Virus record (IMG/VR): IMGVR_UViG_3300005607_000002
Location: 1-62,360 of that record
Source of the DNA: a virus
Lineage: Duplodnaviria; Caudoviricetes
Reading direction: 5' to 3' (one strand)
DNA length: 62,360 nt
The notes under the pieces were generated by a model. It saw only the letters and a program-made list of their open reading frames with translations. It did no database searches and was not told the DNA's origin. Below are positions 7,150-58,200 of this stretch, in pieces; position 1 is the stretch's first letter; each line of letters starts with the position of its first letter. A program made the translations under genes and the position numbers.

Positions 7150-7773
7150 ATGAACATCAATCCGAAAGTGATCGACCTCTACCACGGCGATGCCGTGTCG
7201 AGCTTCGAGGACGCCTACAAGGCCGGCATCCGCGGCGTCATCCACAAGGCGACCGAGGGCGCGACGCTTTCCGACCGCGCCTATGCGCGGCGTCGCGTCA
7301 TGGCGCTCGATGCCGGCATGCTGTGGGGCGCCTATCATTTTCTCAGGCCCGGCGATCCGGCCGGCCAGGCGCGCCGCTTCCTCGATGAGGCGCGGCCCAC
7401 CGAGGCGACGCTGATCGCGGTCGATCACGAGGATACGCGTGTCCCGCTTGCGGCGCTCGTCCGTTTCCTCGACGAGCTTGAGGCCGCGGGCATCAGGAAG
7501 CGCGTCGTCTATTCCGGTTTCCTCATCAAGGAGCAGCTTCCCCGCGCCGATGATTATCAGCGCGCCGTCCTCGCGCAATGCGAGCTGTGGCTCGCGCATT
7601 ACGCCGCGGCGCCGAGATGGCCGGCGCTGTGGAAGACGCCGTTCCTGTGGCAATTCACCGGCGGCGGCGAAGGCCCCGAGCCGCATTCGACGCCCGGCAT
7701 CCACGGCGCGGCCGACCTCAGCGCTTTCGACGGCGGCGACGACGAGCTCGCCGCGCAATGGAACGCGGCATGA
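7150..7773 (+). CDS. Endolysin, glycoside hydrolase family 25
   Basis: VIDLYH...HKATEG...WGAYHF...AVDHE...LWLAHY...LWQFT...DLS motifs of GH25 lysozymes. Confidence 0.9.
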   Translation: MNINPKVIDLYHGDAVSSFEDAYKAGIRGVIHKATEGATLSDRAYARRRVMALDAGMLWGAYHFLRPGDPAGQARRFLDEARPTEATLIAVDHEDTRVPLAALVRFLDELEAAGIRKRVVYSGFLIKEQLPRADDYQRAVLAQCELWLAHYAAAPRWPALWKTPFLWQFTGGGEGPEPHSTPGIHGAADLSAFDGGDDELAAQWNAA

Positions 7774-8044: not shown

Positions 8045-8293
8045 ATGGGCCATTCCCATCGGCGCCGAGAGCGCATCGAATTTCCGGTCATCTGCCCGAT
8101 ACACGCGGTTCCGTTCGTCCGGTTCACGGGCGTAGGCGGACGCTACTCGATGGGCTGCCCGCAATGTGTCGCCAAGCTGCGGGCCGACGTCCGGGCTGCG
8201 AAGGAGATCCATCGCAGATGGTCGCCGCTTAAGCGCGGCCGTAAACCGAAAAACCGTGTGCCGGACGACACAGGCGATGCGCCTGCGGCGTGA
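8045..8293 (+). CDS. Small basic putative Zn-binding protein
   Basis: CPIH...CPQC motifs. Confidence 0.4.
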   Translation: MGHSHRRRERIEFPVICPIHAVPFVRFTGVGGRYSMGCPQCVAKLRADVRAAKEIHRRWSPLKRGRKPKNRVPDDTGDAPAA

Positions 8294-8345
8294 TATCCGG
8301 GCCGCAGGGACTTCAAAAGGATTCGAGTCGACGAAAGGAAAGCCG

Positions 8346-9035
8346 ATGCTGAAGCGGATTGATCTTGTCGTTCTCTATAGTTTGATGGCGAGCTGGCCGG
8401 CGCTCGCGGCCGACCAGAACCCGCCCGCGAGGCCGCCCGTGAACGCCGCCGCGGGGGCGCCGGCCGTGTGCACGGTGTCAAGCTGCAGCGGCTTCTATCT
8501 CGGCGGCCATATCGAGGGCGTCGGTTCGAACGCCGATATCCTCGGCAGCGGGATCAACGGGTCGATCTTCGCCAACGGCGCGGGCCTCGGCCTGCATGCG
8601 GGCTATCAGCTCTGGAACGGCAATTTCTTTGCGGCCGGCGAGATCGGCGGCACATGGTATACCGGCGGCACGTCGATCATCACCGACACCGCCAATGTCG
8701 ATCCGCGCTGGTCGGTCGATTACCTTGCCAAGTTCGGCTATGGGCTGCAGGGCCTGTTCAATTCCGCTCCGGCGCCGTCGCAGGGGCCGGTCAACGTCAT
8801 CCAGCAGCTTAACGCCGCGCTGATCTCGCCTTATTTTCTGATCGGCGGACGCACGCGCAACTTCGGCAGCGGCCTCGCGACCGGCGGCGGCGTGCAATAT
8901 GCGATCGGCGGCGGCTGGAACGCATTCGCGGAATATCTCCACGTGAATTACGAGCAGACCGTCACCTCCGGCGCCGCGCCGGTTTCGATCGGCACGGAGA
9001 ACATCGTGCGCGCCGGCGTCAACCTGATGTTCTGA
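8346..9035 (+). CDS. Outer-membrane beta-barrel protein (Omp25/RopB-like)
   Basis: AAGGA RBS, signal peptide ending ALA-AD, SGFYLGG, GLHAGY, GGGVQYA, AEYLHV, terminal VRAGVNLMF. Confidence 0.8.
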   Translation: MLKRIDLVVLYSLMASWPALAADQNPPARPPVNAAAGAPAVCTVSSCSGFYLGGHIEGVGSNADILGSGINGSIFANGAGLGLHAGYQLWNGNFFAAGEIGGTWYTGGTSIITDTANVDPRWSVDYLAKFGYGLQGLFNSAPAPSQGPVNVIQQLNAALISPYFLIGGRTRNFGSGLATGGGVQYAIGGGWNAFAEYLHVNYEQTVTSGAAPVSIGTENIVRAGVNLMF

Positions 9036-9449
9036 CATACCGGGTTCCTCGGCCACAGGTCGGACGCGACCGGCACGCTCGATCCGCAGAATCTCGACCA
9101 CCTCAAATGGTGCATTCAGCTGTTCGGGACATGCCGCATCGGCGTCGATCTGCCGCGCTCGGCGATAGACCAGTTCGACGCGGGCGAGCCGTGGGACGTG
9201 CGCGGCGACGGCGCGATCCTCGGCGGCCATGACGTGCCGCTGGTGAAATATGACGGCGCCGGCGGCGGTATGTTCTATTGCGTGACCTGGGGCCGGCTGC
9301 AGCCGGTCACGCCCCGGGGCTTGACCTTGATGGCCTCGCGAAAAAACTGGCGGCGCTGTGAGGCTTGCCGGGCGGGCGCGAGCCGTGCCTGGCGATGCGC
9401 CGCCGCAAGCGGCTATGCCTGCGGCGGCGCTCAGGTCAGGGAGGCGTGA
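9036..9449 (+). pseudogene. 5'-truncated remnant of a papain-like phage peptidase gene
   Basis: Open frame from 9036 with no start: LKWCIQLFGTCRIGVDLP...QFDAGEPWD...GGHDVPLVKYD...CVTWGRLQPVT. Confidence 0.5.
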
Positions 9450-9828
9450 CGAAGCCCAGGTGGCGGAACACCTGGGTTTTGCGGACGATGCCGAACGGAT
9501 GTTCGGCATCGCGCACGATCTCTTCCACGCTCTCGCGTTTCGAGAAGGCGTAGCGGGGCTCGATGCCCCGGAGCCGCAGGGCGCATTCCAGCGCGCCCAT
9601 GAGAAACGGCGCGCCGCCGATCATGGCCAGGGCGGGAACGGGATAACCCGCGCTCGCCGTGGCGAGATCGGTGATTGCTTTGGCCCGCGCCGCGATTTCG
9701 CGCGGCGCGGGGAGATCCTCAAAGGTGAGGAGCTCCCGCAGGCGAGCGAGATGCTCGCCTTCGAGGTCGTACACGCCGGCAGCGATTTGCTCCGGCCTCG
9801 CCTCATGCTGGGTGAGATTGATAATCAT
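9436..9828 (-). CDS. Csx20-like small protein, candidate cyclic-oligoadenylate ring nuclease
   Basis: AAGAGGG RBS; NLTQH-x4-EQ, MIGG, PRYAFSKRESVEE, RKTQVFRHLGF resemble remembered Csx20 motifs. Confidence 0.55.
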   Translation of the reverse strand: MIINLTQHEARPEQIAAGVYDLEGEHLARLRELLTFEDLPAPREIAARAKAITDLATASAGYPVPALAMIGGAPFLMGALECALRLRGIEPRYAFSKRESVEEIVRDAEHPFGIVRKTQVFRHLGFVTPP

Positions 9829-9841
9829 GCTTACCCTCTTC

Positions 9842-9879
9842 AAAAAAAAGGACGCGCGGCGGCCACGCCGGCGCGTCCC
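9842..9879 (-). terminator. Intrinsic terminator directly upstream of the Csx20-like RBS
   Basis: Minus strand GGACGCGC...GCGCGTCC then T8. Confidence 0.75.
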
Positions 9880-10190
9880 CATTTTCCCCCGCAGGGCAGG
9901 CCGTAGCCTGTGCCGGTCCCGTCCCGTTCCGGGTGTTACCTCGGGCCGCGGCTTAAGCCGCGGAAGGCCGCTCCCTTATCATCCCGGCCGCGCTATCCGG
10001 CATTTCGCCGGCCGGTCCCCGCGGATCGGCGCATACTGGCAGGCCGCGGGAGTTCCTCCAGATGATTTCTCGGCGCGCGGGTCGCTGGAGGCCGAAGGCC
10101 CGCGTCTGCTGCCCAGTCAGCGCCCGACAATCAGGTCAGTGGCCGGGAGCGTCCGCTGCCACGGACGCCAGATTGTCTCGCTAACGGAAT
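9842..10190 (-). ncRNA. Candidate structured non-coding RNA or leader (~350 nt)
   Basis: No convincing ORF; multiple hairpins (GGCC-TTC-GGCC, CCGGC-GAAAT-GCCGG, CCGCGGCTTAAGCCGCGG, GACAATC/GATTGTC enclosing GCGTCCG/CGGACGC); ends at terminator. Confidence 0.4.
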
Positions 10191-10640: not shown

Positions 10641-10918
10641 ACTGCACCGGTTACTGCACCGGTTTTTGTCGCGCTCCACCGGTTTTCAGGGGTTTTTTTC
10701 CTGTTTTTTGTTGAATTTCCACGGCCGCGCCGAAGGCGATTGATGGCGTTATGTGATTGATTTGTATAATTATTTTTTAGTTTTCCAATGAGGTTTAAGA
10801 CGCCATAATTGCAATTGGCCCCAGGGTGGCGCACTGGGGGCGGTATCTTGAATTAGATCGAGAAATCAATCTGTTGTGCCCGTAAGATTGTCCGGCTGCA
10901 CCGGCTGCTGCACCGGTT
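10641..10918. other. Putative attP region with integrase arm-type repeats
   Basis: (A/G)CTGCACCGG(T/C)T at 10641, 10653, 10895, 10907 and a variant at 10673 flank an AT-rich core at the integrase 3' end. Confidence 0.7.
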
Positions 10919-12062
10919 TTTGCGCCTGCCGGCGCATCTCGCGCGCGCGGCGCTCCTGGGCGAGGCGCTCGATCGCGGCGGCGCGCTCGCCGTCGGCGAC
11001 ATCGGCGTAGGCCCTCAGCGTGGTCTTGATGTCCTCGTGGTCAAGCGCAAGCTGAACGATCTTCATGCCTTGCGCGGTGGGCACGGAGCGCAGGAGCTTG
11101 GTCGCAAAATCGCTGCGCAGGTCATGCCAGCGGAACCGGCTGACGCCGGTGAGGCCGGCCGCGGCGCGCACCGCATTCCATGCCCCGCGCAGCCCCTCGC
11201 GCGTCCACGGATAGCGCTCGCCCCTGACGATGCCGAGCCGCCGCACCGTATAGCGCGCCTCGAAGGTGAAGACGCGCGCCGGATGATGGCCGCGCAGCGG
11301 CCACAGGATGGCGCGGATGCTGGGCGTGATCGCGACGGCGATATCCTTGCCGCCGGCGCGGCCCTTGCCGGTCATCCGGATGACGCCGTCCTCCCAGTTC
11401 ACCTGCCGCCACTCGAGCGTATAGCAGTTGGTCTTGCGCTTGCCGCAGGTGCGGGCAAATTCGATCAGGGGCCAGAGGTCCGGGCGCAGCTCGGATATTG
11501 CCGCCGCCAGACGGCGCTCTTCGTCGGCCGTAAGCTCGCGCGGCTTGCGCTTCGGCTCGTCGAGCCAGAGCCTCCTCCACTCCGGCTCATGAGGAAAATG
11601 CCGTACGGCCGGCCGCAGATAGGTGAACAGCTTCTTGAGCTGCTCGGTCGTATCGTTGACCGCATAGGCCGAGACCGGGCGCGCCTTCTCGCCCTTGCCG
11701 ACGAGGTGGGCGCGCCGCCAGCGGATGAGGCCGAGCGCGTCGTCATGGGTGATGTCGGTGATAAGCTTCGCCGGCCCGAAATAGGTGATGAGCAGATTGA
11801 TCAGGCGCCGCGTGTTGTCGGCCCCGACGTGATGGTCGCCGACGTCGATCATGTAGCGGGCCGCCACCGCATCGAGCGTCAGCGCGACGCCGGCGTCCGC
11901 CTGCGCCTGCCGCTCGCTCTTTAATCTCTTTTCGATTTCGGCGGCGGCGATTTCCGCCTCGCGGCGGCTCGTTCGGCCTGTTGAGCGAGAAAGCTGACGA
12001 CCGTCGATCCAGACGTTGGTGTAGTAGAATTTCGATTGGCGCTTTTTGTAGACGGTGGGCAC
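10866..12062 (-). CDS. int: Tyrosine recombinase / phage integrase
   Basis: Arm-binding N-terminus (RSTGRTSRREAE), CGKR, WHDLRSDFAT, LDHEDIKTTLRAY catalytic motifs. Confidence 0.93.
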   Translation of the reverse strand: MPTVYKKRQSKFYYTNVWIDGRQLSRSTGRTSRREAEIAAAEIEKRLKSERQAQADAGVALTLDAVAARYMIDVGDHHVGADNTRRLINLLITYFGPAKLITDITHDDALGLIRWRRAHLVGKGEKARPVSAYAVNDTTEQLKKLFTYLRPAVRHFPHEPEWRRLWLDEPKRKPRELTADEERRLAAAISELRPDLWPLIEFARTCGKRKTNCYTLEWRQVNWEDGVIRMTGKGRAGGKDIAVAITPSIRAILWPLRGHHPARVFTFEARYTVRRLGIVRGERYPWTREGLRGAWNAVRAAAGLTGVSRFRWHDLRSDFATKLLRSVPTAQGMKIVQLALDHEDIKTTLRAYADVADGERAAAIERLAQERRAREMRRQAQKPVQQPVQPDNLTGTTD

Positions 12063-22840: not shown

Positions 22841-23100
22841 CACCCTCCCGGAATTGGGAGGGTGACGGCGATGCGGAAGCGCCCGCCCCACAGCGGGTTG
22901 GGAGGGTTTACGCCATCCGGGAGGGTTAACGCCATTAGCTCTTATGGACTCGGGACTCGTATGCAATGAATTCAAAAAAACCCTCCCAAGTCTCCCCGGG
23001 CATAAGAGCCGGCGCTGGAAAAACTGTTGGCAACCTTGGGGAAAGCCTGTGGATAACGCAAACGAACCAATCTTCCGGACCCTCCCGCGGACTCTCCCGG
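22841..23100. repeat. Cluster of GGGAGGGT/ACCCTCCC repeats, candidate replication origin
   Basis: About six copies in both orientations, including the inverted pair CACCCTCCC...GGGAGGGTG, right after the helicase gene. Confidence 0.5.
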
Positions 23101-23123
23101 CCGCATTGCAGCCGCCGAAAAGC

Positions 23124-23753
23124 ATGCGGCCGTGGACCGAGGTGCTCGCCGAGCTTGAGGCGCGCCACCATGCGCAGCCCGGTCCGCGCTGGCATCTCGT
23201 GCAGTGTGAGCCGGGCGAGCATGACGCGCATGCGTGCGAGTGGCTCGGCCGGCTCGGCTACGAGGTGTATTACCCGCGCGTGCGCAAGCTCAAGGCGGTG
23301 AGCCGCAAGGGGCTGTCGAAACGGCAGCGCCGGCTACGGGCGACGGTGATGCGTGAGGTGCTGGCGCCGCTGTGGCCGCGCTATGTGATGACGCGGTTCG
23401 ACGTGCAGGACGGGCAGTGGCACCGCATCTTCGACATCGCCGGGGTGACGGGCCTGGTGTGCGCGCAGAACCGGCCGGTGCCGATCGCGGATGATCTCAT
23501 CGCGCGCATGCGCGCCGCCGAGGTAGGGGGCGCTATTCCGGCGGCGACGCCGGCGGCGCGGATCTATCGGCTGGGCGCGCTCGCGGAGATTACGGAGGGT
23601 CCGTTCACGGGCTTCCGCGGCGCGATCGAGCGGGTGCGGACGGAGACGATCGCCGGCGTTTCCGCGGCGGTGCAGCTGACCGTCGCGATCAATATTTTCG
23701 GCCGGCTGACGCCGGTGGACCTGGAGGCCTGGCAGGCCCGGCCGGCCGATTAG
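23124..23753 (+). CDS. NusG-family transcription antitermination factor
   Basis: WHLVQCEPG, PLWPRYV, KOW-like ITEGPFTGFRGAI, INIFGRLTPV. Confidence 0.85.
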   Translation: MRPWTEVLAELEARHHAQPGPRWHLVQCEPGEHDAHACEWLGRLGYEVYYPRVRKLKAVSRKGLSKRQRRLRATVMREVLAPLWPRYVMTRFDVQDGQWHRIFDIAGVTGLVCAQNRPVPIADDLIARMRAAEVGGAIPAATPAARIYRLGALAEITEGPFTGFRGAIERVRTETIAGVSAAVQLTVAINIFGRLTPVDLEAWQARPAD

Positions 23754-24830: not shown

Positions 24831-24914
24831 GGCAGCCACCCTGGCAGCCACCCTGGCAGCCACCCTGGCAGCCACCCTGGCAGCCACCCTGGCAGCCACC
24901 CTGGCAGCCACCCT
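24831..24914 (+). repeat. Tandem repeat, 7 x GGCAGCCACCCT
   Basis: Seven perfect 12-bp copies, intergenic, downstream of TTGACT-N18-TATGAG. Confidence 0.95.
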
Positions 24915-24997
24915 GGCGACCGGCCGGGGCGGCGGAGCGTACCTTAAGCGGCGCGCTGCGACCTTCGCGAAATTTTCGCGAAGGTCATAAAATTCGC

Positions 24998-25559: not shown

Positions 25560-26168
25560 ATGCCTGCCTGCCGCGACCCTCAGCACGAGCGCTTCGCCCG
25601 CGCGCTCGCCGAGCAGTATCTCGCGGTGCCGCCGCCGCGCCGGCCGGTGCTGGAGGCCTTCAAGGCCGCGGGCTATGCCCCGCACAAGGGCAATGCCAGC
25701 CGGCTTGCCAGGCGGCCGGAGATCCGCGCCCGCGTCGCCGAGCTCCTCGAGGAGGCGCGCGAATACGCCGACATCCGCCTCGTCAAGGCGCTGGTGCGCG
25801 TCGATCGCATCGCCGACGCCAAGCTGCCGGACTATTACGAGCGCCGCGACGGCGCGCTGGTGCTGCGCGACATCACCGCGCTGCCGCCGCGCCTCGCCGA
25901 GGCCATCGCCGAGCTTGAATATCACGACGACGGCCGCATCAAGCGCATCAAGCTGCACGACAAGGCGCAGGCCAACCTCGCGCTGCTCAAGCATTTCGGC
26001 GGCGCCGGAGAGGCGGCCGAGCGCCGCGCCGACGTGAACATCTGGAATGTCCTCTCAGTCGAAGATCAGCGCGTGCTTGCCGATCTTGTCGAAGCTCTCG
26101 CCCGAGGGTCTGCGCCTGCTCTCGCGGGAGCTGCGGGCGAGAGCGCAGCAGCAGGCGCGGGAGCGTAA
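25560..26168 (+). CDS. terS: Terminase small subunit
   Basis: HERFARAL, AFKAAGY, NASRLARRPEIRARVAEL, IKLHDKAQANLALLKHFG; upstream of terL. Confidence 0.8.
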   Translation: MPACRDPQHERFARALAEQYLAVPPPRRPVLEAFKAAGYAPHKGNASRLARRPEIRARVAELLEEAREYADIRLVKALVRVDRIADAKLPDYYERRDGALVLRDITALPPRLAEAIAELEYHDDGRIKRIKLHDKAQANLALLKHFGGAGEAAERRADVNIWNVLSVEDQRVLADLVEALARGSAPALAGAAGESAAAGAGA

Positions 26169-26910
26169 GCTCTACTCCTATTACCCGGACGACGGCCCGC
26201 TCCGGCGCGAGCTCTATCCGCGCCATATGGAGTTTTTCGCCGCCGGCGGCTGGCATCAGCGGTTGCCGTCCTGTCCGGCCGATTGCGACGGCTCACCGCA
26301 TCGCGACCGGCTGATGCTCGCCGCCAATCGCGTCGGCAAGACCGAATCGGTCGGCGGCTACGAGGTCGCGCTGCACGCCACCGGCCGCTACCCCGCCTGG
26401 TGGCCGGGGCTGAAATTCCGCCGGCCGGTCGAGATCTGGGCGAGCGGCAAGAAGAATGAGACCACCCGCGACATCATCCAGGCCAAGCTGTTCGGCCCGG
26501 TCGCCTGGCGCGGGCGCGTCAAGACGCTGGCGGGCACCGGCCTCATCCCGGCCGAGGACATCGGCGCCGTGACGTGGAAGCGCGGCGTCGCCGATCTCGC
26601 CGACACCGTGCAGGTGCGCCACCGCTCCGGCGGATGGAGCGTGATCGGCCTCAAGAGCTATGAGCAGGGACGCGGCGCCTATGAAGGCACCGAGAAGGAT
26701 ATCATCTGGTTCGATGAGGAGCCGCCCGTCGATGTCTATGTGGAGGCCGGCATCCGCACCATGACCACGCAGGGCCATACGCTGCTCACCTTCACCCCGC
26801 TGGAGGGCATGAGCGAAGTGGTGCTCGAGTTCCTGCCCGGCGGCACGCTGCCGCCGCGGGACGAAAGCATGGCCCCTCATGTGCTCGAGGCGATCGGCCG
26901 CGGGGCCTAA
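26047..26910 (+). CDS. terL: Terminase large subunit, N-terminal ATPase part (P22-like)
   Basis: RLMLAANRVGKT, KSYEQGR, IIWFDEEPP, LTFTPLEGMSEVV. Confidence 0.88.
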   Translation: MSSQSKISACLPILSKLSPEGLRLLSRELRARAQQQARERKLYSYYPDDGPLRRELYPRHMEFFAAGGWHQRLPSCPADCDGSPHRDRLMLAANRVGKTESVGGYEVALHATGRYPAWWPGLKFRRPVEIWASGKKNETTRDIIQAKLFGPVAWRGRVKTLAGTGLIPAEDIGAVTWKRGVADLADTVQVRHRSGGWSVIGLKSYEQGRGAYEGTEKDIIWFDEEPPVDVYVEAGIRTMTTQGHTLLTFTPLEGMSEVVLEFLPGGTLPPRDESMAPHVLEAIGRGA

Positions 26911-26912
26911 GC

Positions 26913-27671
26913 ATGGGGGGCAAGTTCGTGGTCAACGCCGGCTGGGATCACGTGCCCCACTTGAGCGAGGAGCAGAAGGCGGCCGAGCTCGCCCGCATCC
27001 AGCCCTATCAGCGCGAGGCGCGCTCCAAAGGCATTCCGGCCCTGGGCGCCGGCGCGATCTATCCGGTGCCCGAAGACTATGTCCTGTGCGACCCGTTCGA
27101 GATTCCCGACTGGATGCCCCAGTGTTACGCCCTCGATGTCGGGTGGCACCGCACCGCGGCGCTGTGGGCGGCGCACGACATCAACTCGGATGTCGTCTAT
27201 CTCTACAGCGAGCATTACCGGGCCGAGGCCGAGCCGCCGGTGCACGCCAATGCGATACTCGCGCGAGGCAAGTGGATTCCCGGCGTCATCGACCCGGCGG
27301 CGCGCGGGCGCGGCCAGCGCGACGGCGAGCGGCTGATCAGGGTGTACCAGGAGCTCGGGCTGCAGCTTCTTTTCCCGGCGGCCAACGACATCGAGGCGGG
27401 CATCTACGAATGCTGGATAAGGCTTTCGACCGGCCGCATGAAGGCATTCCGCAGCCTGCAGAACTGGCTTGCGGAATTCCGCTTCTACCAGCGCGACGAG
27501 AGAGGCCGCGTGAAGGACGGCCAGCCGGACCACCTCATGGACTGCATGCGCTACATTCTACTCTCCGGACTTCCCCGCGCCGTGGTGCGGCCGCCCTCGA
27601 TGTGGACGGCGCGCGGCCTCGTCGCGCGGCATACGGCCGACTATGATCCGCTCGCCTACGGAGACCGCTGA
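26913..27671 (+). CDS. terL: Terminase large subunit, C-terminal nuclease part
   Basis: WDHVPHL, REARSKGIPALGAGAIYP, ALDVGWHRTAA, DHLMDCMRY. Confidence 0.88.
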   Translation: MGGKFVVNAGWDHVPHLSEEQKAAELARIQPYQREARSKGIPALGAGAIYPVPEDYVLCDPFEIPDWMPQCYALDVGWHRTAALWAAHDINSDVVYLYSEHYRAEAEPPVHANAILARGKWIPGVIDPAARGRGQRDGERLIRVYQELGLQLLFPAANDIEAGIYECWIRLSTGRMKAFRSLQNWLAEFRFYQRDERGRVKDGQPDHLMDCMRYILLSGLPRAVVRPPSMWTARGLVARHTADYDPLAYGDR

Positions 27672-28965: not shown

Positions 28966-29146
28966 TGCTGGCCTATACCGAGCCTGAGATCGAGCTGGCT
29001 CGCGAAATCATGTGCGAGCAACTCGGCGGGACAGAGACCAATCGGCGTTTTGCGAGGCATGCGGCCGGTCTCCATGCCGAACATGTCGATTTCTGCCTGC
29101 AGCTCGCCCGCTGTGTCCTCAGAAGGGCCGGCACGGGATCGCCGTG

Positions 29147-30910
29147 ATGCTGCGGCGCTATACCTTCAAGGTGCATTTCAGCAAGCGCCGCGCCATGCGG
29201 CGCGCGCAGGAGGAAGCCGCGATGCGCTTCGCGCGGATGGCGGCCGAGCTGCGCAATGCTCTGATTGAGCTATGCTACAACACCTACTGCTGCCGCTGCG
29301 AGAGGGCCGGCGCGCCTCCTCCCGTCGACCCTCGTGTGGTTGCCTATGCCGTACGGGACAGGACCAAGGCAGAGGCGCGCGAGATCATCGCCTCCTACCG
29401 GCGCGGCCTCGGCGGCTCGATGCGGCGCAGCGAGCCGCAATGGCACAAGCCCGAGCGCCCATGGCCGCAGGAGCGCAAGGAAAAGCTGCGCGCCACGATG
29501 CGGCGTCGCGAAGAGGAAAAGCGCGCCAGGCGCAAGGCGCCGGCGAAGCCGCGCAAGCCGCCCCGGCAAGCCAGCGTGCGGGCGCTCGCGCTGGCGGAGC
29601 TCACCGGCGAGATCACGGCCTTGCGCTGGGCCTGCCCCGAGTGGGCCGAAATGCCGACCCATATGCAGCATCGGGTCGCCGACGGGCTCGTCAAGTCGCT
29701 CGCCGCCCTCATGCGCGGCGACGCGAAAGCGCCGCGATTCAAGCGGACCGATCGCGCGAACCGGCTCCCGCTCGGCGCCAAAGGCTATAAGCTCGCGCCG
29801 CAGGGCCGCGAGCGGTCGCGCGCCGGCCGGTCCCGCGCGAGCGCTCGAAACTGGAAATTGACCGTCACGGGGCTGCCGGGGCACATGCGCGCCGTCGGCG
29901 AGTTCCCGGCCGAGGTCAGGCAATGGAAGACGGCCGATCTGATTTTCCATGCCGGATCATGGTGGCTATCGGTATGCGTTGAGATTGAGCGCGAGCGCTC
30001 TCACGGCGCAGAAGAGGTTACGGTCAGGCTCGGCCTGATCGACGAGTTTGCCCATGTGGAAGGGGCAACGGGTCCACGCTGGTGCCCGGGCGAGGGCGTT
30101 CGCGCCTGCGCCGAAAGTCCGCATCGTTTCCACGACTTGGCAGGAGGCTCTGACAACGCCGCAGATGCCGTTGCGGATGGGCGGGCCGGATTGGCCGGCA
30201 TTGGCCACATAGGAGCGAGGTCTGACAACGCCGCAGATGCCGTTGCGGATGGGCGGGATCAGGACGGTTGCCGGAATCCTCGGCGACTACCACCTGACAA
30301 CGCCGCAGATGCCGTTGCGGATGGGCGGGATCAGGACGGTTGCCGGAATCCTCGGCGACTACCACCTGACAACGCCGCAGATGCCGTTGCGGATGGGCGG
30401 GTTATCAAACCTTTCTCGATCCCTCAATCAAAACGGCCGGCCGAGCCGGTCGCAGACGCCGCCGCCGACGCCCTCAAGGCCGAGCGCGACCGCCGCTACC
30501 GCCGCGGCTCGCGGCGATGGCGCCGCGCCGCCCGGCGCATCGCCAGGATCGAGGCCCGCGCCGCCCGCAGGCGGCGCGAGCGCCATCATCTGTGGACATC
30601 GCAACTCGTGCGCTGCGCCGGCGCCATAACGGTGATCGCTCCCGACATTCCGCAATTCACGAAATCAGGGCGCGGCGACGCGCGGAACTGGGGCGCCAAC
30701 GTCAAGCTCGCCGCCGCCCTCAACCGTCACATCCTCGGCCAGGCGCCGATGCTCGCCGTATCGATGCTGCAATACAAGGCCGAGGAAGCCGGAATCCGGT
30801 GCGACCTCATCGAAGACGACGCGCCGGAGATCGCCGTCGGCCGCGACCACGTCGCCGCCGGCAAAGCCCAGCGCCGCCTGCGGCGCGCCATCAGAAAGGA
30901 CGCAGCATGA
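29147..30910 (+). CDS. TnpB/Cas12-like RNA-guided DNA-binding protein, predicted nuclease-dead, with internal in-frame CRISPR-like array
   Basis: TnpB-like order: RRYTFKV, LRNAL, ITALR..CPEW, APRFK, WWLSVCVE, degenerate RuvC-I VTVRLGLIDEFA, Arg-rich helix RRGSRRWRRAARRIARIEARAARRRRERHH, degenerate RuvC-II ITVIAPDI, LNRHILGQA...MLQYKAEEAG; no Zn finger or RuvC-III. Confidence 0.8.
   Translation: MLRRYTFKVHFSKRRAMRRAQEEAAMRFARMAAELRNALIELCYNTYCCRCERAGAPPPVDPRVVAYAVRDRTKAEAREIIASYRRGLGGSMRRSEPQWHKPERPWPQERKEKLRATMRRREEEKRARRKAPAKPRKPPRQASVRALALAELTGEITALRWACPEWAEMPTHMQHRVADGLVKSLAALMRGDAKAPRFKRTDRANRLPLGAKGYKLAPQGRERSRAGRSRASARNWKLTVTGLPGHMRAVGEFPAEVRQWKTADLIFHAGSWWLSVCVEIERERSHGAEEVTVRLGLIDEFAHVEGATGPRWCPGEGVRACAESPHRFHDLAGGSDNAADAVADGRAGLAGIGHIGARSDNAADAVADGRDQDGCRNPRRLPPDNAADAVADGRDQDGCRNPRRLPPDNAADAVADGRVIKPFSIPQSKRPAEPVADAAADALKAERDRRYRRGSRRWRRAARRIARIEARAARRRRERHHLWTSQLVRCAGAITVIAPDIPQFTKSGRGDARNWGANVKLAAALNRHILGQAPMLAVSMLQYKAEEAGIRCDLIEDDAPEIAVGRDHVAAGKAQRRLRRAIRKDAA
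30150..30401. CRISPR. Intragenic CRISPR-like array: 4 x 36-bp repeat, 3 x 36-bp spacers
   Basis: CTGACAACGCCGCAGATGCCGTTGCGGATGGGCGGG at 30150, 30222, 30294, 30366; hairpin CCGCA/TGCGG; spacers 2 and 3 identical; possible degenerate fifth repeat at 30441-30476. Confidence 0.85.
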
Positions 30911-49823: not shown

Positions 49824-52235
49824 GTGCCCGGCTATGCGCTCAACATCGATCCGCTGCCGTCGGTCAGTCCGATCGGCGCCCCGGGCGGCGATTTCGAACG
49901 CATCCAGGCGTCGCCGGAGATGTTCGGCGGCGCGATCGCGCGCGCGCTCGGCCAGCTCGGCCAGGGCGCGGAAGCCGTTGGTAATGCCGGTTTCGATGTG
50001 CTGCGGCAGCGCCAGGAGCGGACCAACGAGATCGGCACTTCCGAGACTAATACCTGGCTCGCCAAGGCGTTCACCGACAGGCTCAACGATTTTCAGCGGC
50101 TGCAGGGGCGCGCCGCGCAGGACGCGCTGCCGAAATACAAGCAGGACATCGAAGACCTCTACCAGCAATCGCTCAAGAGCGCGGGCGACAATCTCGCCAT
50201 GAAGGCGATGCTGGCGAGATCCGGCCGCTATCTGACCGACGCCTATTACCGCTACGGCGCCCAGCATGCCGCTTCGCAGTGGCGGCAATGGCAGGACAAG
50301 ACCGCCGCCGACCGCGCGGCGGAATACGGCAATCAGGCGGCGATCGCCGCGGAGCACGGGACCTGGGACGACGTGGCGGCGTTCCTCCACACGTCCGACG
50401 ACGAAACATCGAAGCGCTTCGAAGCGCAGGGCTGGCAGACCCAGGATATCGCCCCCGAGATCGCCAGGAACCGGGGCCGCAATGTGCGCAATATCGTCGA
50501 AACGCTCGCGGCCCAGGGCGATTTTCGCACTGCCCGGGCGGTCTACGACAGATATCAGGACGGCATGGACGCGGCGTCGCGGCTTGCCGTCGTCTCCAGG
50601 CTGCGCACCGCCAATGCGCAGATCGAAGGCCATCGCATCGCCGATGAGGAGACGGGCCGGGCGCTGCGCGCGGACGCGGCGGAATTTCTCAAGGAGCGCA
50701 CGAAGGCCCGGGTCGAGGGGCTCAATCCGGATTTTGCCGGACGGCTTGCCGAGGCAGGGCGGGACTTCGAGGCGCAGACCGGCGGCAAGGCCGCGTTCGA
50801 GAGCCTCAAGCGCACCACCGAAGAGCAGGCCGAGATCTACGAGCGGCATCTTGCGATGCCCGGCGGCGTCGCGGCCCATCCCGCCGCGCCTCCGGGCCGC
50901 TCGCGCCACGAACGCGGCGAGGCGGCGGACATCCCCGCCGGCCCGTTCCGCGACTGGCTGCACGAGAACGCCGGCCGCTACGGCCTTGAATTTCTCAAGG
51001 GCGAGACCGGCCGCAATGATCCCGGCCATGTGCAGCTCGCGGCCGGGCCGCCCGGCCCGCACGAGGGCGACAAGGGCGCGGTCTTTGACCGCATCGTCGA
51101 GAGGACGAAGGACAATCCGCTGGCGCAGAGCTACGCCGTCGCCCGGATGAACCAGATTTTTGCGGTTGCGCGCGATGAACGCGTGCAGGGCCTTGCGCTG
51201 TTCAACCGCCGCCAGCAGGATACGACGATCGAGGCGCTGGCGACGGGAACGGTGCGCGAGCCGTTGACCGAGGACGATTTCCTCACCCACCGCAAGCCCG
51301 GCGAAAGCGCCGATGATGCGCTTGACCGCTATCAGAGCTATCTCGCCGATCTCCGCAACGGCGCCGACCGCCATGCGATGGACGGCATGTCGGCCGCCGA
51401 TATGCGCGCCATGATCGCCGCGGCCGAACCGCGGCCCGACGTTCCGGGCGGCATGACCCGCGCGGTGGAGCGTCAGGCGTTTCTCATCAAGGCGATGGAG
51501 GAGATCGAAAAGAAGCGCCGCGACGATCCGGCCGGCGCGGTTGCAAAATCGCCGGCTGTGATGATGGCCCTGCAGCAATACGACCCGCAGAAGCCAGAGA
51601 CCTTCCGTTCGGTGGCCGATGCGCGGCTTGCCGCCCAGGCCGAACTCGGCATTCCGCCGGAGGAGCGCTCCGCGATCGCCAAGGACGAGGCGCTCGAGAT
51701 GATCGCCCCGGTGTGGCGGGCGCTGCCCGGACAGCAGCGTGACGCCGTGACTGCGGCGGCTGCGCGCTTCGAGGCGATGTTCGGCCCGGCATGGCCGCAG
51801 GCCTTTGCCTATGCGCTGCGCACCCACGCCGCCGATGCGGCGGTCAAGGAGAGGGCGGCCGCGGTGATCGGCAAATGGCTCAAGGGACAGCCGGCGTCCG
51901 CCGCCGAGGCCCGCGTCGCCGACCAGGAGAACGAGATCGCGGCCGCCGATATGGCGGTGCGCGCGATGACCCCTGAGCAGATCCGCGAGACCGCCGAAGC
52001 GGTAAGGATGGGCGCCGGCCCGTTCGTGCCGGCCGATTTTGCGCAGCCGCCGGCGACGCCGGAAAAAAGCGCCGCAAAAAGCGGGGAAGCAAGGCCCGTG
52101 CCTCCCGCGGCCGATATCATTGCGCTGCGGCGCAACCCCGCGCTCGGGGCTCGCTTCGACGAGAAATACGGCAAGGGCGCGGCCAAGCAGATTCTTGAGC
52201 GCTATCCGCTCGGAGCAGGCGATGGCGGACGATGA
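49824..52235 (+). CDS. Internal virion protein with M15-type peptidoglycan peptidase domain
   Basis: SLKRTTEEQAEIY, AAPPGRSRHERGEAADI, WLHENAGRYGL, DPGHVQ. Confidence 0.75.
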   Translation: MPGYALNIDPLPSVSPIGAPGGDFERIQASPEMFGGAIARALGQLGQGAEAVGNAGFDVLRQRQERTNEIGTSETNTWLAKAFTDRLNDFQRLQGRAAQDALPKYKQDIEDLYQQSLKSAGDNLAMKAMLARSGRYLTDAYYRYGAQHAASQWRQWQDKTAADRAAEYGNQAAIAAEHGTWDDVAAFLHTSDDETSKRFEAQGWQTQDIAPEIARNRGRNVRNIVETLAAQGDFRTARAVYDRYQDGMDAASRLAVVSRLRTANAQIEGHRIADEETGRALRADAAEFLKERTKARVEGLNPDFAGRLAEAGRDFEAQTGGKAAFESLKRTTEEQAEIYERHLAMPGGVAAHPAAPPGRSRHERGEAADIPAGPFRDWLHENAGRYGLEFLKGETGRNDPGHVQLAAGPPGPHEGDKGAVFDRIVERTKDNPLAQSYAVARMNQIFAVARDERVQGLALFNRRQQDTTIEALATGTVREPLTEDDFLTHRKPGESADDALDRYQSYLADLRNGADRHAMDGMSAADMRAMIAAAEPRPDVPGGMTRAVERQAFLIKAMEEIEKKRRDDPAGAVAKSPAVMMALQQYDPQKPETFRSVADARLAAQAELGIPPEERSAIAKDEALEMIAPVWRALPGQQRDAVTAAAARFEAMFGPAWPQAFAYALRTHAADAAVKERAAAVIGKWLKGQPASAAEARVADQENEIAAADMAVRAMTPEQIRETAEAVRMGAGPFVPADFAQPPATPEKSAAKSGEARPVPPAADIIALRRNPALGARFDEKYGKGAAKQILERYPLGAGDGGR

Positions 52236-55200
52236 CGTGCTGACCGCCGATCCGGCGGTGCAGGCCGGGGAAGCCCGCGAGGCCGCAGCCGCGCGGCTCG
52301 CCCGGCCGCTCGGCCTCGGGCATGGCCTCGTCCCCGGCCCCGGCCCCGAACCGCCGGAGGAAGATTATTCCGTCCTGCCGTCCGACCGCGAGGAGACGCA
52401 GGCAGGCGATGTCGATATCGGCGAGCGCTTCAGGCTGGGACGGATCAACTCGTATTATCGCGGCACCATCGCCGGCAGCGGACGCCTCGCCGAGCTGGCG
52501 CGCGTTGCGACCGCGCCGGAAGACCGGCTGACCGATGCCGAACGCAAGCTTCGTCCGGCGTGGAAAAAGGAATATGACGGCATCGTCGCCGACCTCGCCC
52601 GCTATGACCTGATGCAGCCGTGGGGCACGACGCTGGAGGGCGCGGCGGCGCTCGGCGGCGCGCTCGCGGGCGGCATGATGAGCCCCGAGAGCTTCCTTGG
52701 CGCTCCGGCGCGCGGCGCGACCTGGCTTGCCCGCACCGTCACCGCCGCCGTCCAGCAGGGCGGCATCCAGGCTGCGGCCGATCCCGTTGTGCAATGGCTC
52801 AGCCGCGAGGGCGGGACGGAGCAGGAGTACGATCCCTGGCGCACCGCCGAGACGGCGGGCCTGGGCGCCGTCATCGGCGGCGGCCTGCACGGCATTCTGG
52901 GCGAGCTTGTGCCGGCGGCGCGGGTGCGCAAATTGCGCGCGGATCTTGCGGCGGAGGACGAGGCCTTCGCCGGCGACGTCGAACGGCAGGCGGCGGCAGG
53001 ACCGGAGATTCCGCAGCAATTGCCGAGCGACATTGCGGAGGCGCAGGCGGCCGGGACCGCTCCTGCAGCGCCGCAGGCCGCGACGCAAGCGCCTGGGCAA
53101 GCGCCTGGGCAAGCGCCTGCGCCGCCGCAGCCGTCCACGCCCGCGCCTGGGCAAGCGCCCGCGCCGGCCGCTCCGGAAGACGCCTCGGCCTGGACCAAGA
53201 CAGGCGGCCAGAAAGGCTCCAATCCGGGCGGGACCTACAAGGACGCGCGGGGCATCGAATGGTATGTCAAGACGCCGCAGACCGAAGACCATGCCCGCAA
53301 CGAGATGCTGGCGAATGAGCTTTACCGCTATGCCGGCGCCAACGTGCCGGAGATGAAGCTCGTCACTCTTGACGGTAAGCCGGCGGTGGCGAGCCGTATG
53401 CTGCCGAGCGGAATGCAGCAGCTTGCAAAGTTTCCCTCGTCCGGCGCCCACGCGAAATTCGCAATCGACGCTATCAAGAGAGACTTTGCAGCCGATGCCT
53501 GGCTCGCCAATCACGATGTGATCGGCCTCGGCCGCGACAACATTCTCGTCAGCCCAATAGATCCGGACCAAGTCGTGCGCATCGACCAGGGCGGCGCGCT
53601 GCGCTACCGCGCGCAAGGCCAGCCTAAGCAGAATTTCGGGCCGAAGGTCGCCGAGTTCGAGACCATGCGCGATCCCAACATCGCGCCGCAGGCGGCGCAG
53701 ATATTCGGCCCGATGTCGGACCAGGAGCTGCTCTACTCGATCAACCGCGTGCTGCTTGTTCCCGAGCAGGACATCCGCGACGCGGTGGCGAAGTTCGGCC
53801 CCGCCGACCCGGCCGAAGCGCAGAAGCTCGCCGATACGCTGATCGCGCGGCAGGACGACCTGCGCGAGATCCGCAAAGATCTGATGGCGAAGATCGCAGC
53901 GAAGATGCAGTCCGCCGCGGCGGCGGCGCCTGCGGGAGCGCCCCCGGCAACCGCGCCTGCGCCTCCTCCTGCATCTGCGCCTTCGCCCGCTCCCGCGCCT
54001 GCGCCTGCGCCTCCTCCTGCATCTGCGCCTGCTCCCGCGCCTGCGCCGCAACAAAAGGCCACGGACGTCAGCGTCGTCTGGGGCAAGAGCGGCGGCGGAA
54101 AGCCGATCAGCCAGTCCAATCCGGGCGCGCCGCTTGCTCCGCTCGCACATGTTTCCGGCGGCGCGCCCGTCGCCGCCGACGCCGCGCACCTTCCCTCCGG
54201 GGCGCCGCTCAAGAGCGCTTCATGGGCCAAGAAGCCTCCGGCGAACTGGAACAATGCCGGCGGCAAGGACGCCGCGCTCGCCAAGACCGAGCCGGCGCTC
54301 AAGACGCCGCTCGGCAAGAAGCCGGCGTCCGGCGTCATCATCCGCGAGCCGGACGGACGCGTGTGGGTTGTCGCCCCCGCCAACCAGTTCGGCGGCTACG
54401 AGCATACGTTCCCGAAAGGAAAAATCAGCCCCGGCCTTTCTCCGCAGGCGAACGCCATCAAAGAGGCGTTCCAGGAGACCGGCCTCAAGGTCAAGATCAC
54501 CGGCCTCATCGGCGACTTCGAAGGCGACACCAGCATTACACGCTATTATTGGGCCGAGCGCACCGGCGGCAGCCCGGAAGACGCACATTGGGAGACCGAG
54601 GCGGTCAAGCTCGTGCCGGCCGCGCGGCTGTTCGACTATCTCAACATGCCGCGCGACCAGGAGCTCGCCAAGGCCGCGTTCGGCAATGCGCTCAAGCCCG
54701 GCAAGCACGGCGATCCTGCGGCGATCGCCGCTTCCGCCGCAACCGGCGCAGCCGCAGGCGCGAGCGCATCATCTGCAACCGCGGCCGGCCTGCCTGCAGA
54801 CGCCGAAAAATCCGCCAAGGATTGGATCAAAACCAACATGGCGAACGTGCATACGGCCGCGGAGGTAGACGCGATGCCCGCGGACCAGGCGGTCGCCTAC
54901 GCGGAGCACCACGGGTGGAAACCCGCCGGTGCGCCGAGGAAGGGGATTCCTACCGCTCCGGGCAGCCATCCTGCACTGCCGATGGACCAGGCCTCGCGCG
55001 AGGCCCGCGCCAAGCAGACAGGCTTCAAGCTGCCGGGAATGCCGGAGCCGTGGGCGCGGACCTGGTTTCACGGGACGCCGAATATTTTTGAGGCCTTCGA
55101 CCTCGGCCATGTCGGCAGCTTCCATTCGACCAGCAAAGAAAAGGCAGTTTTTCTTTCCGACAGTCCAAAGATCGCCGGGATGTTCGGCGGCGGGGGCCCG

Positions 55201-58200
55201 GTCTTTCCGATGTGGACGCGAGCGCAGAAAGTCATGGTGATCGACCCCGAGCCCGGAGAGGCCTATCGCAGTTTCACCAGCTCATTCTTCGGCGCGAAGA
55301 TCCAGGAGGCCATCAAACACGGCTACGACGCCGTGCTGTTCCGGCAGATATCCGATGTGGGCGGCGTCGGCGATCAACTGGCGGTGCTGCACCCGAACCT
55401 CCTGCGCTCGATCCACGCCGCATTTGATCCGGCCGAGATTATCAGCCCCAAGCTTGCCGCGATCAAGCCCGGAAAGAAGGAGCTGACGCCGGATGAGTTC
55501 GACCGCGCCTATCGGGAGATGCTCGAGCAGGCGGCGAGCGACATGGTTGAGGCGCAGGAACGCGGGGAGGCCGTCCATCCGGGCAGGGAAGCGCCCGCTG
55601 CCGGCGCCGCCGAAGGCGCGGCGGAAGGCGAAGGCCATCTGCAGGCCATCGCTCAGCGCAAGGCCGGGCAGACGCTCGCCGGCGAAGTGAAGCGGCCCGC
55701 GACCGGCGTCGCGGCGCCGGCGGCGACCGCGGTCACGACGCCCGCGCCCGGCGCGCCCGGCGGCGCAGCAGCGTCATCGCTTCCGGGCGTCTCCGCCGCG
55801 CTCACGCCCGCCGCGCAGCAAGCGAAGGACGCCGCAATCCGCTCGCTCCAGCAGCAGGTGACGGACCTTGCGAAAGCGATGGGCCTGACCGTGCACGAAG
55901 GCCGCGTGCAGATCAAAGGCGCGCTGGGCCAGTTCAACTCGCAAAGCGATGTCATCCGCATCAAGGAGATTCCCGATCTCGTGGCCGTGGCCCACGAAGC
56001 GGGACACGCCATCGAGCAGAAGGTCGGGCAGGACCTTACCAACGCAATAAACTCTTTTGCCTACGAGCTGGGGCCGCTCGACTACGAATGGCCGGCCCAG
56101 GCGCGGCCGGCGGAAGGCTTTGCCGAATTCATCCGCCACATGATCGGCAACCCGGCCTATGCGCAGGCGCAGGCGCCCGGCTTCATGACGGCATTTCGCA
56201 CCCTGATGCAGCAGCGCGCGCCCGATCTGCTCAAGGCGATCGACAGCGCCGCCGCGGCCTACCGGGCCTACACGGAAGCGTCATCGGCCGGCGCGATTCA
56301 ATCGATGATCCGCAGCCAGGCCGAAAAGCAGCAAGGCTGGCGCAGCATTGTCCAGGGCCTCCGCGAGGACGGCCTTGCCGCGACGGTCAATGTCGTGATG
56401 TCGCGCGCCTATGATATGACGCTCGACAAGAATTCCGACATGTTCCGCATGGTGCGCGACGTCGCCCGCGCGGTTCGCGACGAGACCGGACAGCTTGTCG
56501 ACCTCAAGGCCGCCGACAACCCCGCCATTCTTCTCCAGATGGCGCCCGACGCCGCGCGGGCCCGCGCCATCGCCGACACCAACCGCGGCACCATCCCTTA
56601 TCACGGCGTCGCGCCGCGCGGGCCGTCGCTGACCGACGCGCTCGCCAAGGCGATCGGCGCGCCCACCCGGTTCGGCCAATGGAACGAGGACAAGCGCACC
56701 TTGTTTTCGGTCTACCTCATTGCCCGCCGCGGCGAATATCTGTGGCGCCGCTTCGAAGCCGGCGAATTGCCCAATCCGCCGGTCGCCTTCAATAAGGCCG
56801 ACGCCATCCAGGCGATGGCGGACCTCGAAGCCGCCAATCCGACCTTCCGCGCCGCCTCCGACATGGTGCATGCGTGGGCGAAGGAGCAGCTCATCAAGAT
56901 GCGCGACGCCGGGCTCAAGGAGCCCGATGTCATCGACCGCCTGCTGCGTCAGGAATTCTATGTGCCGTTCATGCGCGACATGTCGGACAAGCCGATGGCC
57001 GGCGGCCCCGTCACCATGGGCGCAATGCATGAAGGGCCAGGCGTGACCGAGCTTATCAAGCGCATCAAAGGCTCGGCGCGCGACATCTTTGATCCGATCG
57101 AATCGCTGATCGGGCAGGCGCGCCTTCTCAACCGCGCCGTCGTCTATAACGACATCTATCTCGCGCTCGAACGGCTGAGCGAATTGCCGGGCGCCCGCGC
57201 CGGCCGGTTCTTCGAGCCGGTCCCGGCCTACGAGCCGCACAGGACGACGTTTAACCTCGGCGACGTCATCGAGAAGAAGCTGATCGCCAGCGGCGTGCTG
57301 CCGGATGACGCGGCCGTCGCGACCGCCGGCATCGTCAATCTGTTCGGCGAAGACCCGCTGATGGGCGCGTTCTTCCGCATGGAGAAAACCGCGCCGCACG
57401 GCGAGCCGATCGTCTTCTACCGCAAGGAGGGAAAGCTCAAGGCGGCGCGCGTCATGGCGGCGGCGGACAGCGGCGAAGGCTACAGGCTGTTCGAATTGCT
57501 GACCGCGATGCCGCAGACGATGGGCGATTTGTTTTCCGATCTGGTCGGCGCGGTCAGCCACGTCCAGCGCGCCGGCATCGTCACCAACCCGACCTTCATC
57601 CTGACCAATTACATCCGCGACCAGCTCGCTACTTTCCTGCTGCGGCCCGGCTATTTCCCGATCTTGTCGGGCCTCAAGGGCATTCTCTCGGAGGCGCGAC
57701 AGGGCGAAGCCGCGCGGCTCTATGCGCTCGGCGGCGGCGTGTCGCCCGGCGCCGCCGTCGCGCCGCTGGAGCATATGCTCCGCAACGACGTCGCGGCGCT
57801 GGCGCAGAACGGCTACCTCGTCAGCCGCCTCGGCCCGACCGGGCATCTGCTCACCACGACGCCGTCATGGGAAGAGTTCGGCAAAGGAACGCCGCAGGAC
57901 TTTTCGCGCAATGTCGCGGAAGCATTCCGCGGCTGGCTCGAATTCTCGCAGATCACCGAGGCCGGGACGCGCAATTCGGTGTTCGGCATCGTCTATAAGC
58001 AGAAGCTCGCCCAAGGGCTGTCGCCTTATGAGGCAATGGAAGAAGCCGCCTGGCAGGCCCGCGACCTGCTCGATTTCGGGCGTCACGGCTCGCATATGCT
58101 GATGGCGCAGCGCTTCATCCCGTTCCTCAATGCGCATCTGCAGGGGCTCGACAAGGCTTATCGGACCATTGCGCAGCCGATCATCGACAGGATCCGCGGC

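Follow-up and report, generated by a model that had tools for sequence, protein, structure and literature searches.

The question raised by this locus is whether a small gene beside the integrase of a phage encodes a nuclease directed against type III CRISPR immunity. The phage is IMG/VR virus record IMGVR_UViG_3300005607_000002, the whole of which (62,360 bp, with direct terminal repeats and 66% G+C) is the window analysed here. The gene is an open reading frame (ORF) at 9436-9828 on the minus strand that encodes a protein of 130 amino acids and a stop codon, designated P0001. The coding sequence was taken from the ORF call and its translation, its family from homologues and the PF27247 tag, and its connection with Csx20 from profile comparisons. 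The outcome of a type III CRISPR response, recovery or growth arrest, is set by ring nucleases, and those of viruses act as anti-CRISPRs. The reading favoured in this study, which is regarded as moderately probable, is that P0001 is a phage-borne member of the MJ1673/Csx20 superfamily that would bind and cleave cyclic tetra-adenylate (cA4) and in this way counter type III CRISPR. It is favoured because a shortened relative sits in a published anti-CRISPR operon, because the clade is mobile and because the fold and residues are like those of Csx20.

The first matter is how closely P0001 resembles Csx20. Against the NCBIfam model of Csx20 (NF040559, CAS_Csx20) P0001 scored 15.4 bits (E 0.019) compared with a cut-off of 70 bits, and only its C-terminal residues 84-126 were aligned; the match to the PADLOC Csx20 model was also weak and C-terminal (E 0.0051). 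P0001 is the exception within its own family, as the other 140 of the 141 family members matched CAS_Csx20 at E<=0.01 (best E 1.4e-12), and in whole-genome profile searches family members covered positions 2-121 of the 124 in the model at 25-39 bits. Genuine Csx20 proteins were collected from the class of a Thermoanaerobacter genome, in which 26 of 40 genomes had a match over the cut-off (142-171 bits), and 16 of the 28 over-cut-off matches were aligned, hand-picked to reduce near-duplicates. The cyanobacterial phylum yielded no genuine Csx20 over the cut-off in 301 genomes. When the 141 family sequences were compared with the 16 genuine Csx20 sequences using hhalign, the probability was 95.5% (E 1.3e-8) over 109 aligned columns, which is nearly the whole of both.

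The merged alignment showed which residues the two groups have in common. The same residue was present in at least 85% of the sequences of both groups at H8/H7, Q14/Q13, L34/L33, G72/G72, P91/P91, Y93/Y93, R98/R98, F121/F116, H123/H118 and F126/F121 (P0001 numbering first), and S96 of the P0001 family was aligned to T96 of Csx20. Conserved polar residues, His and Arg among them, have been proposed for ring-nuclease function (Makarova 2020, as cited in the available excerpt of PMC8284326), and such residues in P0001 are H8, Q14, Y93, S96, R98 and H123, each kept in at least 85% of the sequences of either group. The groups differ in the loop around G71-G72, which reads M-I-G-G-A-P in the P0001 family and L-x-Q-G-D-F-G-A in genuine Csx20. 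Within the 141-member family alignment T6, H8, G71, G72, L80, F95, R98 and F121 were invariant, and N4, Q7, Q14, Y93, S96, K117 and H123 were kept in at least 90% of members. The preliminary description of this DNA had noted four motifs in a 130-amino-acid ORF, and all four were found in the translation of the minus strand at 9436-9828: H8-x4-E13-Q14, I70-G71-G72, P91-x-Y93-A94-x-S96-x-R98-E-S-V-E102 and K117-x-x-V120-F121-x-H123-x-x-F126. These coincide with invariant or near-invariant columns of the family alignment and are therefore family features, not chance strings.

Structure prediction agreed with the profile comparison. The AlphaFold2 model of P0001, built with the 141-row alignment, had a predicted local distance difference test score (pLDDT) of 93.6 and a predicted template-modelling score (pTM) of 0.82, with strands (E) and helices (H) at E2-4, H12-16, E19-21, H24-34, H42-59, E67-70, H74-86, E90-105 and E114-127. 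The model of a genuine Csx20 (pLDDT 90.7) had E2-4, H11-21, E26-28, H31-38, H44-60, E67-69, H74-86, E90-104 and E110-123, which is the same element order at near-equal positions. The top two BFVD hits were the same for both models, A0A5Q2WBQ4 and A0A6J5NYB9, the former with E 3e-15 and TM 0.78 for P0001 compared with E 1.2e-7 and TM 0.69 for Csx20; the folds are thus compared by element order and common BFVD hits and not by direct superposition. The predicted fold is a small Rossmann-derived alpha/beta domain with the order beta-alpha-beta-alpha-alpha-beta-alpha-beta-beta hairpin, that is, a five-stranded sheet flanked by helices. When the P0001 monomer model was run against the PDB in Foldseek, no match reached E<=0.001 (best E 0.059, a methyltransferase), and the extended hairpin of the monomer model may lower Foldseek scores. 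PDB sequence searches with P0001 and with the family profile yielded nothing beyond chance similarity to coiled coils or a dehydratase. Neither approach gave a significant match to the Crn1/CARF ring nucleases (e.g. Sso2081, PDB 7YGH).

P0001 is also predicted to be a symmetric homodimer, and the model supports this binding. Two copies modelled with two molecules of adenosine monophosphate (AMP) scored 0.83, compared with 0.00 for the best of three controls. Among proteins solved as one-chain pairs 20 of 30 attained this mark, as did 1 of 23 among those solved as single chains, a calibration that is rough here because the P0001 run had its own alignment and a small molecule (AMP), and the position of the ligand lies outside the score. 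The runs agreed in at least 97% of contacts with a partner pLDDT of at least 88, and the symmetric interface was made up of residues 36, 38-43, 45-46, 49, 70-75, 77-79, 81, 93, 95 and 124-130. As residues 70-75 are part of this interface, the modelled dimer has the invariant M-I-G-G-A-P loop on its two-fold axis. Csx20 has been modelled as a dimer as well, according to the available excerpt of PMC12409355.

Profiles, hhalign and models together support the view that P0001 is a distant but real full-length homologue of Csx20 at the level of superfamily and fold. P0001 and Csx20 (NF040559) are alike in length class (about 125-130 amino acids), full-length alignment, element order, the conserved H/Q/G/P/Y/S-T/R/F/H and the predicted homodimer, whereas P0001 differs in its score of 15 bits, its separate clade, its own central glycine loop, its place on a phage and its position outside a type III locus. 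P0001 falls below the equivalog cut-off of NF040559 and lies outside any type III CRISPR-Cas locus, and on both counts it is not an equivalog of CRISPR-locus Csx20. The preliminary description had called the protein Csx20-like and had named a comparison of profiles and folds with Csx20 as the check. That comparison came out in its favour, and the likeness stands on the profiles, hhalign, the fold models and the shared polar residues; as a claim of equivalog status it does not stand, given the score of 15.4 bits against 70 and the separate clade. In Thermoanaerobacter sp. G306 a genuine Csx20 (157 bits) is encoded on one contig and a mobile-clade protein (36 bits) on another, and the presence of both proteins in one genome means that these are two distinct paralogous lines.

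By analogy with Csx20, which is a cA4-specific ring nuclease in vitro (PMC12409355), the P0001 dimer would bind cA4 and cut it to linear products, with His8, Gln14, Tyr93, Ser96, Arg98 and His123 as the residues that it has in common with Csx20. With cA4 removed, the type III effectors that it activates (Csx1, Can1/2 and the like) would stay inactive, and the outcome would be protection of the phage during infection or protection of the lysogen from self-directed type III toxicity. The ligand, the catalysis, the target system and the timing of expression in this scheme are inferred. The same fold and dimer could also serve a protein that holds cA4 or another cyclic oligoadenylate (cOA) tightly without cutting it, acting by sequestration as a sponge. 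Phage copy number could suffice for this, and in the related Csx15 some members are reported to be non-enzymatic (PMC13148439, available excerpt) and a sponge role has been raised (PMC12409355, available excerpt). However, H8, Q14, Y93, S/T96, R98 and H123 are invariant or nearly so in 141 members, which fits catalysis better than binding alone, and a sponge is considered quite unlikely.

Published work on ring nucleases bears on the ligand and on the role of phage homologues. According to the available excerpt of PMC12409355, Csx20 and Csx16 degrade cA4 in vitro, Csx20 cleaves cA3 only at tenfold more enzyme, and among extrinsic ring nucleases Csx20 is the one most often encoded in type III loci (78 loci). 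The same source reports Csx20 in 4 and AcrIII-1 in 36 of 28,114 phage genomes. In the available excerpt of PMC13551039, csx20 homologues are described in anti-defence operons under the ribbon-helix-helix (RHH) repressor Aca14, among them a Pasteurella multocida csx20-aca14 operon that is followed by AcrIF6 and Cas5-IF homologues, and co-option of csx20 homologues for counter-defence is suggested. The statement in the preliminary description that viruses use the unrelated AcrIII-1 for this purpose is therefore outdated, as phage Csx20 appears in the one source and csx20 homologues in the other. Homologues of Csx20 in phages have already been published (2025, 2026) as probable counter-defence genes, and P0001 adds one more. 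No assay of a phage-encoded Csx20 homologue was found in the available excerpts of publications on Csx20 ring nucleases or phage anti-CRISPR. In its proposed role P0001 resembles AcrIII-1/Crn2 (DUF1874), a small dimeric viral enzyme that destroys cA4 against type III CRISPR, but it is unrelated in sequence and has no DUF1874 match, and DUF1874 is described as another fold class (PMC12409355, available excerpt).

A relative in a cultured phage connects P0001 with the published operons. Pasteurella phage Pm86 (MH238467.1) carries an unannotated, N-terminally shortened family member (positions 309-699 of fetched locus L194) with 51.7% identity to P0001 over residues 68-127. It lies at the end of the record and overlaps a 71-amino-acid ORF that by eye reads as an RHH protein, which is followed by ORFs of 106 and 406 amino acids. 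This layout is that of csx20-aca14 in the available excerpt of PMC13551039, and the published csx20 homologues therefore belong to the clade of P0001. When small ORFs near family members were searched with jackhmmer for an RHH protein like the 71-amino-acid ORF of Pm86, none was found (0 of 3,462 small ORFs at 150 members). The window gene and the Aca14-regulated csx20 homologues share a clade, a location on mobile elements and a proposed part in counter-defence, whereas the window gene has no RHH or helix-turn-helix (HTH) partner and stands alone between hairpins beside an integrase, and the host of the window phage would be a GC-rich soil or mine bacterium different from Pasteurella multocida (comparison with the excerpt of PMC13551039).

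The family around P0001 is large. A word-indexed protein search found 223 homologues at E<=0.01, and the precomputed PF27247.1 tag is carried by P0001 and by all 120 listed homologues, which are mostly 117-140 amino acids long and 43-61% identical to P0001. When 1.84 billion representatives (50% identity clusters) were searched exhaustively, 1,710 clusters matched at E<=0.001 and 1,156 at E<=1e-10, with two-domain and fused forms among the 1,710 cluster representatives. PF27247 is named MJ1673 in the ESM Atlas (Pfam 38.1), and MJ1673 is presumably the Methanocaldococcus jannaschii protein that passes the CAS_Csx20 cut-off in that genome, which was used as a control. The ESM Atlas clusters nearest to P0001 were 81%, 50% and 60% viral, counting members with a record, and an ESM Atlas cluster of 767 amino acids named as a TIGR02221 family CRISPR-associated protein carries a PF27247 domain. 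The tag is a precomputed one, and the Pfam library that was scanned with P0001 does not include PF27247; that scan (E<=10) returned no family, DUF1874 included, and PHROGs returned nothing. Many database proteins of 260-670 amino acids (P0121-P0131 among them) have two family domains or extra regions with no informative Pfam match, and in ten longer, fused or duplicated forms Pfam gave sub-threshold matches only, plus DUF4116 in one. Some loci hold two copies of the family (L008 174-1084, in tandem; L133 7904-10396; L031 4793-8147).

By sequence, P0001 falls in a large clade that phages and other mobile elements carry and that is set apart from CRISPR-locus Csx20. In a quick maximum-likelihood tree the 16 Csx20 rows were split off by a very long branch (Shimodaira-Hasegawa-like approximate likelihood-ratio test, SH-aLRT, 100), with P0001 on the other side together with 30 viral and 30 genomic rows, which were random samples of the 71 viral and 57 genomic ones that were eligible. 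Rows of viral and of cellular origin were interspersed, and so were distant phyla. Pattern scans of genomes, one per species, gave 73 loci, and those of IMG/VR gave 189 stretches in which a relative was confirmed, 80 of which were kept; the family profile was positive in 149 of the 153 fetched loci. Among cultured phages only 2 of 50,697 records matched, Rhodothermus phage RM378 (44% identity, hypothetical protein) and Pasteurella phage Pm86 (C-terminal half only), and the clade looks far more abundant in uncultured viruses than in cultured ones.

The neighbourhoods of these genes vary. Across 150 loci (the 149 fetched loci and the window, with shadow ORFs removed) no neighbour family was common to more than 13, the commonest being a TrmB-like regulator in 13 loci, all from the candidate phyla radiation (CPR), an SNF2 helicase in 11 and a terminase in 9. 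In phages the contexts included SNF2 helicase, terminase, YqaJ and ParB, and in CPR genomes TrmB, ClpP and RNase Y. Several Saccharibacteria and Paceibacteria assemblies (L015, L017, L034, L035, L041-L043, L054) have the family member beside the TrmB-like regulator and near ClpP and RNase Y. A cellular housekeeping role was considered from this synteny and was rejected, as a sample of 150 other genomes from one CPR order contained no family member; the neighbourhood may be an insertion hot spot.

These contexts bear on whether P0001 shares only its fold with Csx20 and has a role outside defence, for instance as a small nucleotide- or RNA-handling protein for the phage or lysogen. Consistent with such a role, neither a cas gene nor a known anti-defence gene was found beside the gene in the window neighbourhood, the contexts in the family vary, and the ten longer forms contain no informative fused Pfam domain. 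However, conservation falls on the same polar residues as in active Csx20, the gene is sporadic and mobile, and one relative is in an experimentally regulated anti-CRISPR operon. A housekeeping function of phages would also be expected to keep a fixed neighbourhood, and none is fixed here. A role of this kind is regarded as unlikely.

As for a link of the family with type III CRISPR, 50 family-bearing genomes were searched with TIGR02577, a model of Cas10/Cmr2; they were the first 50 among the 73 genome loci once second loci of the same assembly had been omitted. A match at E<=1e-5 was present in 10 of the 50, with 7 over the cut-off. In Pseudomonadota, Cas10/Cmr2 was found at E<=1e-5 in 5 of 13 family-bearing genomes compared with 23 of 200 sampled ones (one-sided Fisher p 0.017), and over the cut-off in 3 of 13 compared with 12 of 200 (one-sided Fisher p 0.053). 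This enrichment is suggestive only: the counts are small, sub-threshold matches may be other cyclase domains, assemblies are incomplete and the statistics ignore phylogeny. In all 10 Cas10-positive genomes the family member and Cas10 were on different contigs, and the mobile clade is not associated with CRISPR by position.

One result weighs against an anti-CRISPR nuclease. Cas10/Cmr2 was found in 0 of the 18 family-bearing CPR genomes, CPR being assigned by record title. This would fit a protein that degrades or binds a nucleotide other than cA4, such as cA3 or a cyclic oligonucleotide like those of the cyclic oligonucleotide-based antiphage signalling system (CBASS), with a target that is not CRISPR. 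So would the deep split of the clade from CRISPR-locus Csx20, the changed glycine loop and the activity of Csx20 itself on cA3 at tenfold higher enzyme. However, the CPR assemblies are small, incomplete metagenomic ones and the Cas10 search used the Cmr2 model only, which gave no match in Thermoanaerobacter genome G306 despite its genuine Csx20. Cas10 is also enriched in family-bearing Pseudomonadota, a relative lies in an anti-CRISPR operon, and the assayed relatives Csx20 and Csx16 prefer cA4 (PMC12409355, available excerpt). Another signal as the target is considered improbable, and cleavage of cA4 against type III CRISPR is preferred.

The gene itself has features that bear on its reading frame and its expression. 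A putative ribosome-binding site, AAGAGGG, lies at 9834-9840 (minus strand), 5 nt 5' of the ATG at 9828. A reading of 148 amino acids from an ATG at 9882 is also open in the ORF list, but this start is disfavoured, as homologues begin MI(I/L)NLTQH and the extension crosses a terminator-like hairpin. A chance ORF is one alternative in this window, which at 66% GC contains many overlapping ORFs. The 223 homologues, the 1,710 clusters and the confident fold model nevertheless rule it out, the ribosome-binding site also being present, and a chance ORF can be regarded as negligibly probable.

The gene is bounded by two inverted repeats. At 9843-9885 (minus strand) a GC-rich hairpin with a run of eight T residues (arms 9843-9857 and 9871-9885; terminator-like sites 9868-9854 and 9869-9851) is terminator-like in appearance and abuts the ribosome-binding site on the same strand, and it may insulate the gene from transcription coming from the integrase side or attenuate it. 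At 9397-9430 (minus strand), 6 nt 3' of the stop codon, a second hairpin has 14-bp arms (93% complementary) and a 6-nt loop with no T run 3' of it, and it is likely the end of a single-gene transcript. A scan of the window sequence found no promoter-like site for the gene, and its expression may depend on read-through of the upstream hairpin. The same phage encodes a NusG-like protein at 22944-23753. The neighbouring ORFs include no small regulator (RHH/HTH, Aca-type) and no known acr gene. The gene is a single-gene cassette, bounded by two hairpins, between lysis genes and integrase.

The surrounding genes describe the phage. A GH25 lysozyme is encoded at 7150-7773 on the plus strand, so that P0001 is opposite to the lysis genes as had been described earlier, and a tyrosine integrase is encoded at 10866-12062 on the minus strand, the same strand as P0001. 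Between the lysis genes and P0001 lies an outer-membrane beta-barrel gene (8166-9035, plus strand; OMP_b-brl just under the Pfam cut-off), which suggests a Gram-negative host and is probably cargo for lysogenic conversion. The phage also encodes a single-stranded DNA-binding protein (SSB), a ParB/MT-A70 methyltransferase, a primase, a D5-type helicase, the NusG-like protein, a terminase, a T7-type portal, a GP7 capsid protein and a polyvalent protein of 2,511 amino acids. The terminal repeats and this gene content indicate a complete temperate phage with the Csx20-like gene in an accessory stretch beside the integrase. No Cas protein was found among the 40 window ORFs scanned, PADLOC gave no match on 10 minus-strand window ORFs, and no Rfam family or tRNA was found in the window.

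As for the host, the sole named relative of the portal is from Bradyrhizobium (68% identity), and the public runs containing the stretch are soil and mine metagenomes, with no RNA run among those listed. A protein identical to P0001 is carried on a contig of 235 kb. No integrase relatives were found in IMG/VR. Of nine loci that encode a related lysozyme (37-47% identity), none has a family member within 7 kb, and these loci are too distant to weigh much.

Several other features of the window were observed. The terminase large subunit is present as two adjacent ORFs, 26047-26910 (Terminase_6N, ATPase) and 26913-27671 (weak Terminase_6C, nuclease), which may be split, frameshifted or recoded. 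A perfect 12-nt unit is repeated 7.2 times at 24831-24917, in an intergenic position 5' of the terminase region, and looks like iterons or a binding-site array. The polyvalent protein of 2,511 amino acids (52039-59574) has NUDIX, weak polyvalent-type ADP-ribosyltransferase and LPD38 matches, with proline/alanine-rich tandem repeats at 53943-54047. A CRISPR-like mini-array at 30149-30401 consists of four copies of a 36-37-nt direct repeat spaced at 72 nt, with spacers of 35-36 nt, two of which are identical. It lies inside a mechanical ORF (29012-30910, plus strand) that has no Pfam match, and it is probably one of the other CRISPR-related elements counted in the preliminary description. With up to 3 mismatches allowed, its 36-nt repeat was absent from all 401 genomes sampled from one class; no IMG/VR contig contained it exactly, and there was no Rfam match.

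With phage homologues of Csx20 already described, the remaining interest lies in the size and distinctness of the mobile-element clade and in the presence of a CRISPR-like mini-array in the same phage. A broader possibility, which is viewed as doubtful, is that the clade (at least 1,710 clusters at 50% identity) is a separate viral family of cyclic-oligonucleotide nucleases, widespread in phages whose hosts are Proteobacteria, Firmicutes, CPR bacteria and archaea, which may have broader or different substrates and act against several nucleotide-signalling defences. CRISPR-locus Csx20 might then be a captured viral gene, and capture of a viral gene has been proposed for AcrIII-1/Crn2. P0001 might also be paired with the mini-array at 30149-30401, the phage using host CRISPR machinery while damping the toxic cOA response.

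For P0001 itself, an anti-defence role in which it would blunt type III CRISPR immunity is plausible by analogy, and the gene is a clean example, being full-length and in a cassette of its own in a complete temperate phage. To our knowledge, AcrIII-1 is so far the sole viral ring nuclease shown to act as an anti-CRISPR. If the role proposed here is true, the clade of P0001 might be a second large family of viral ring nucleases.

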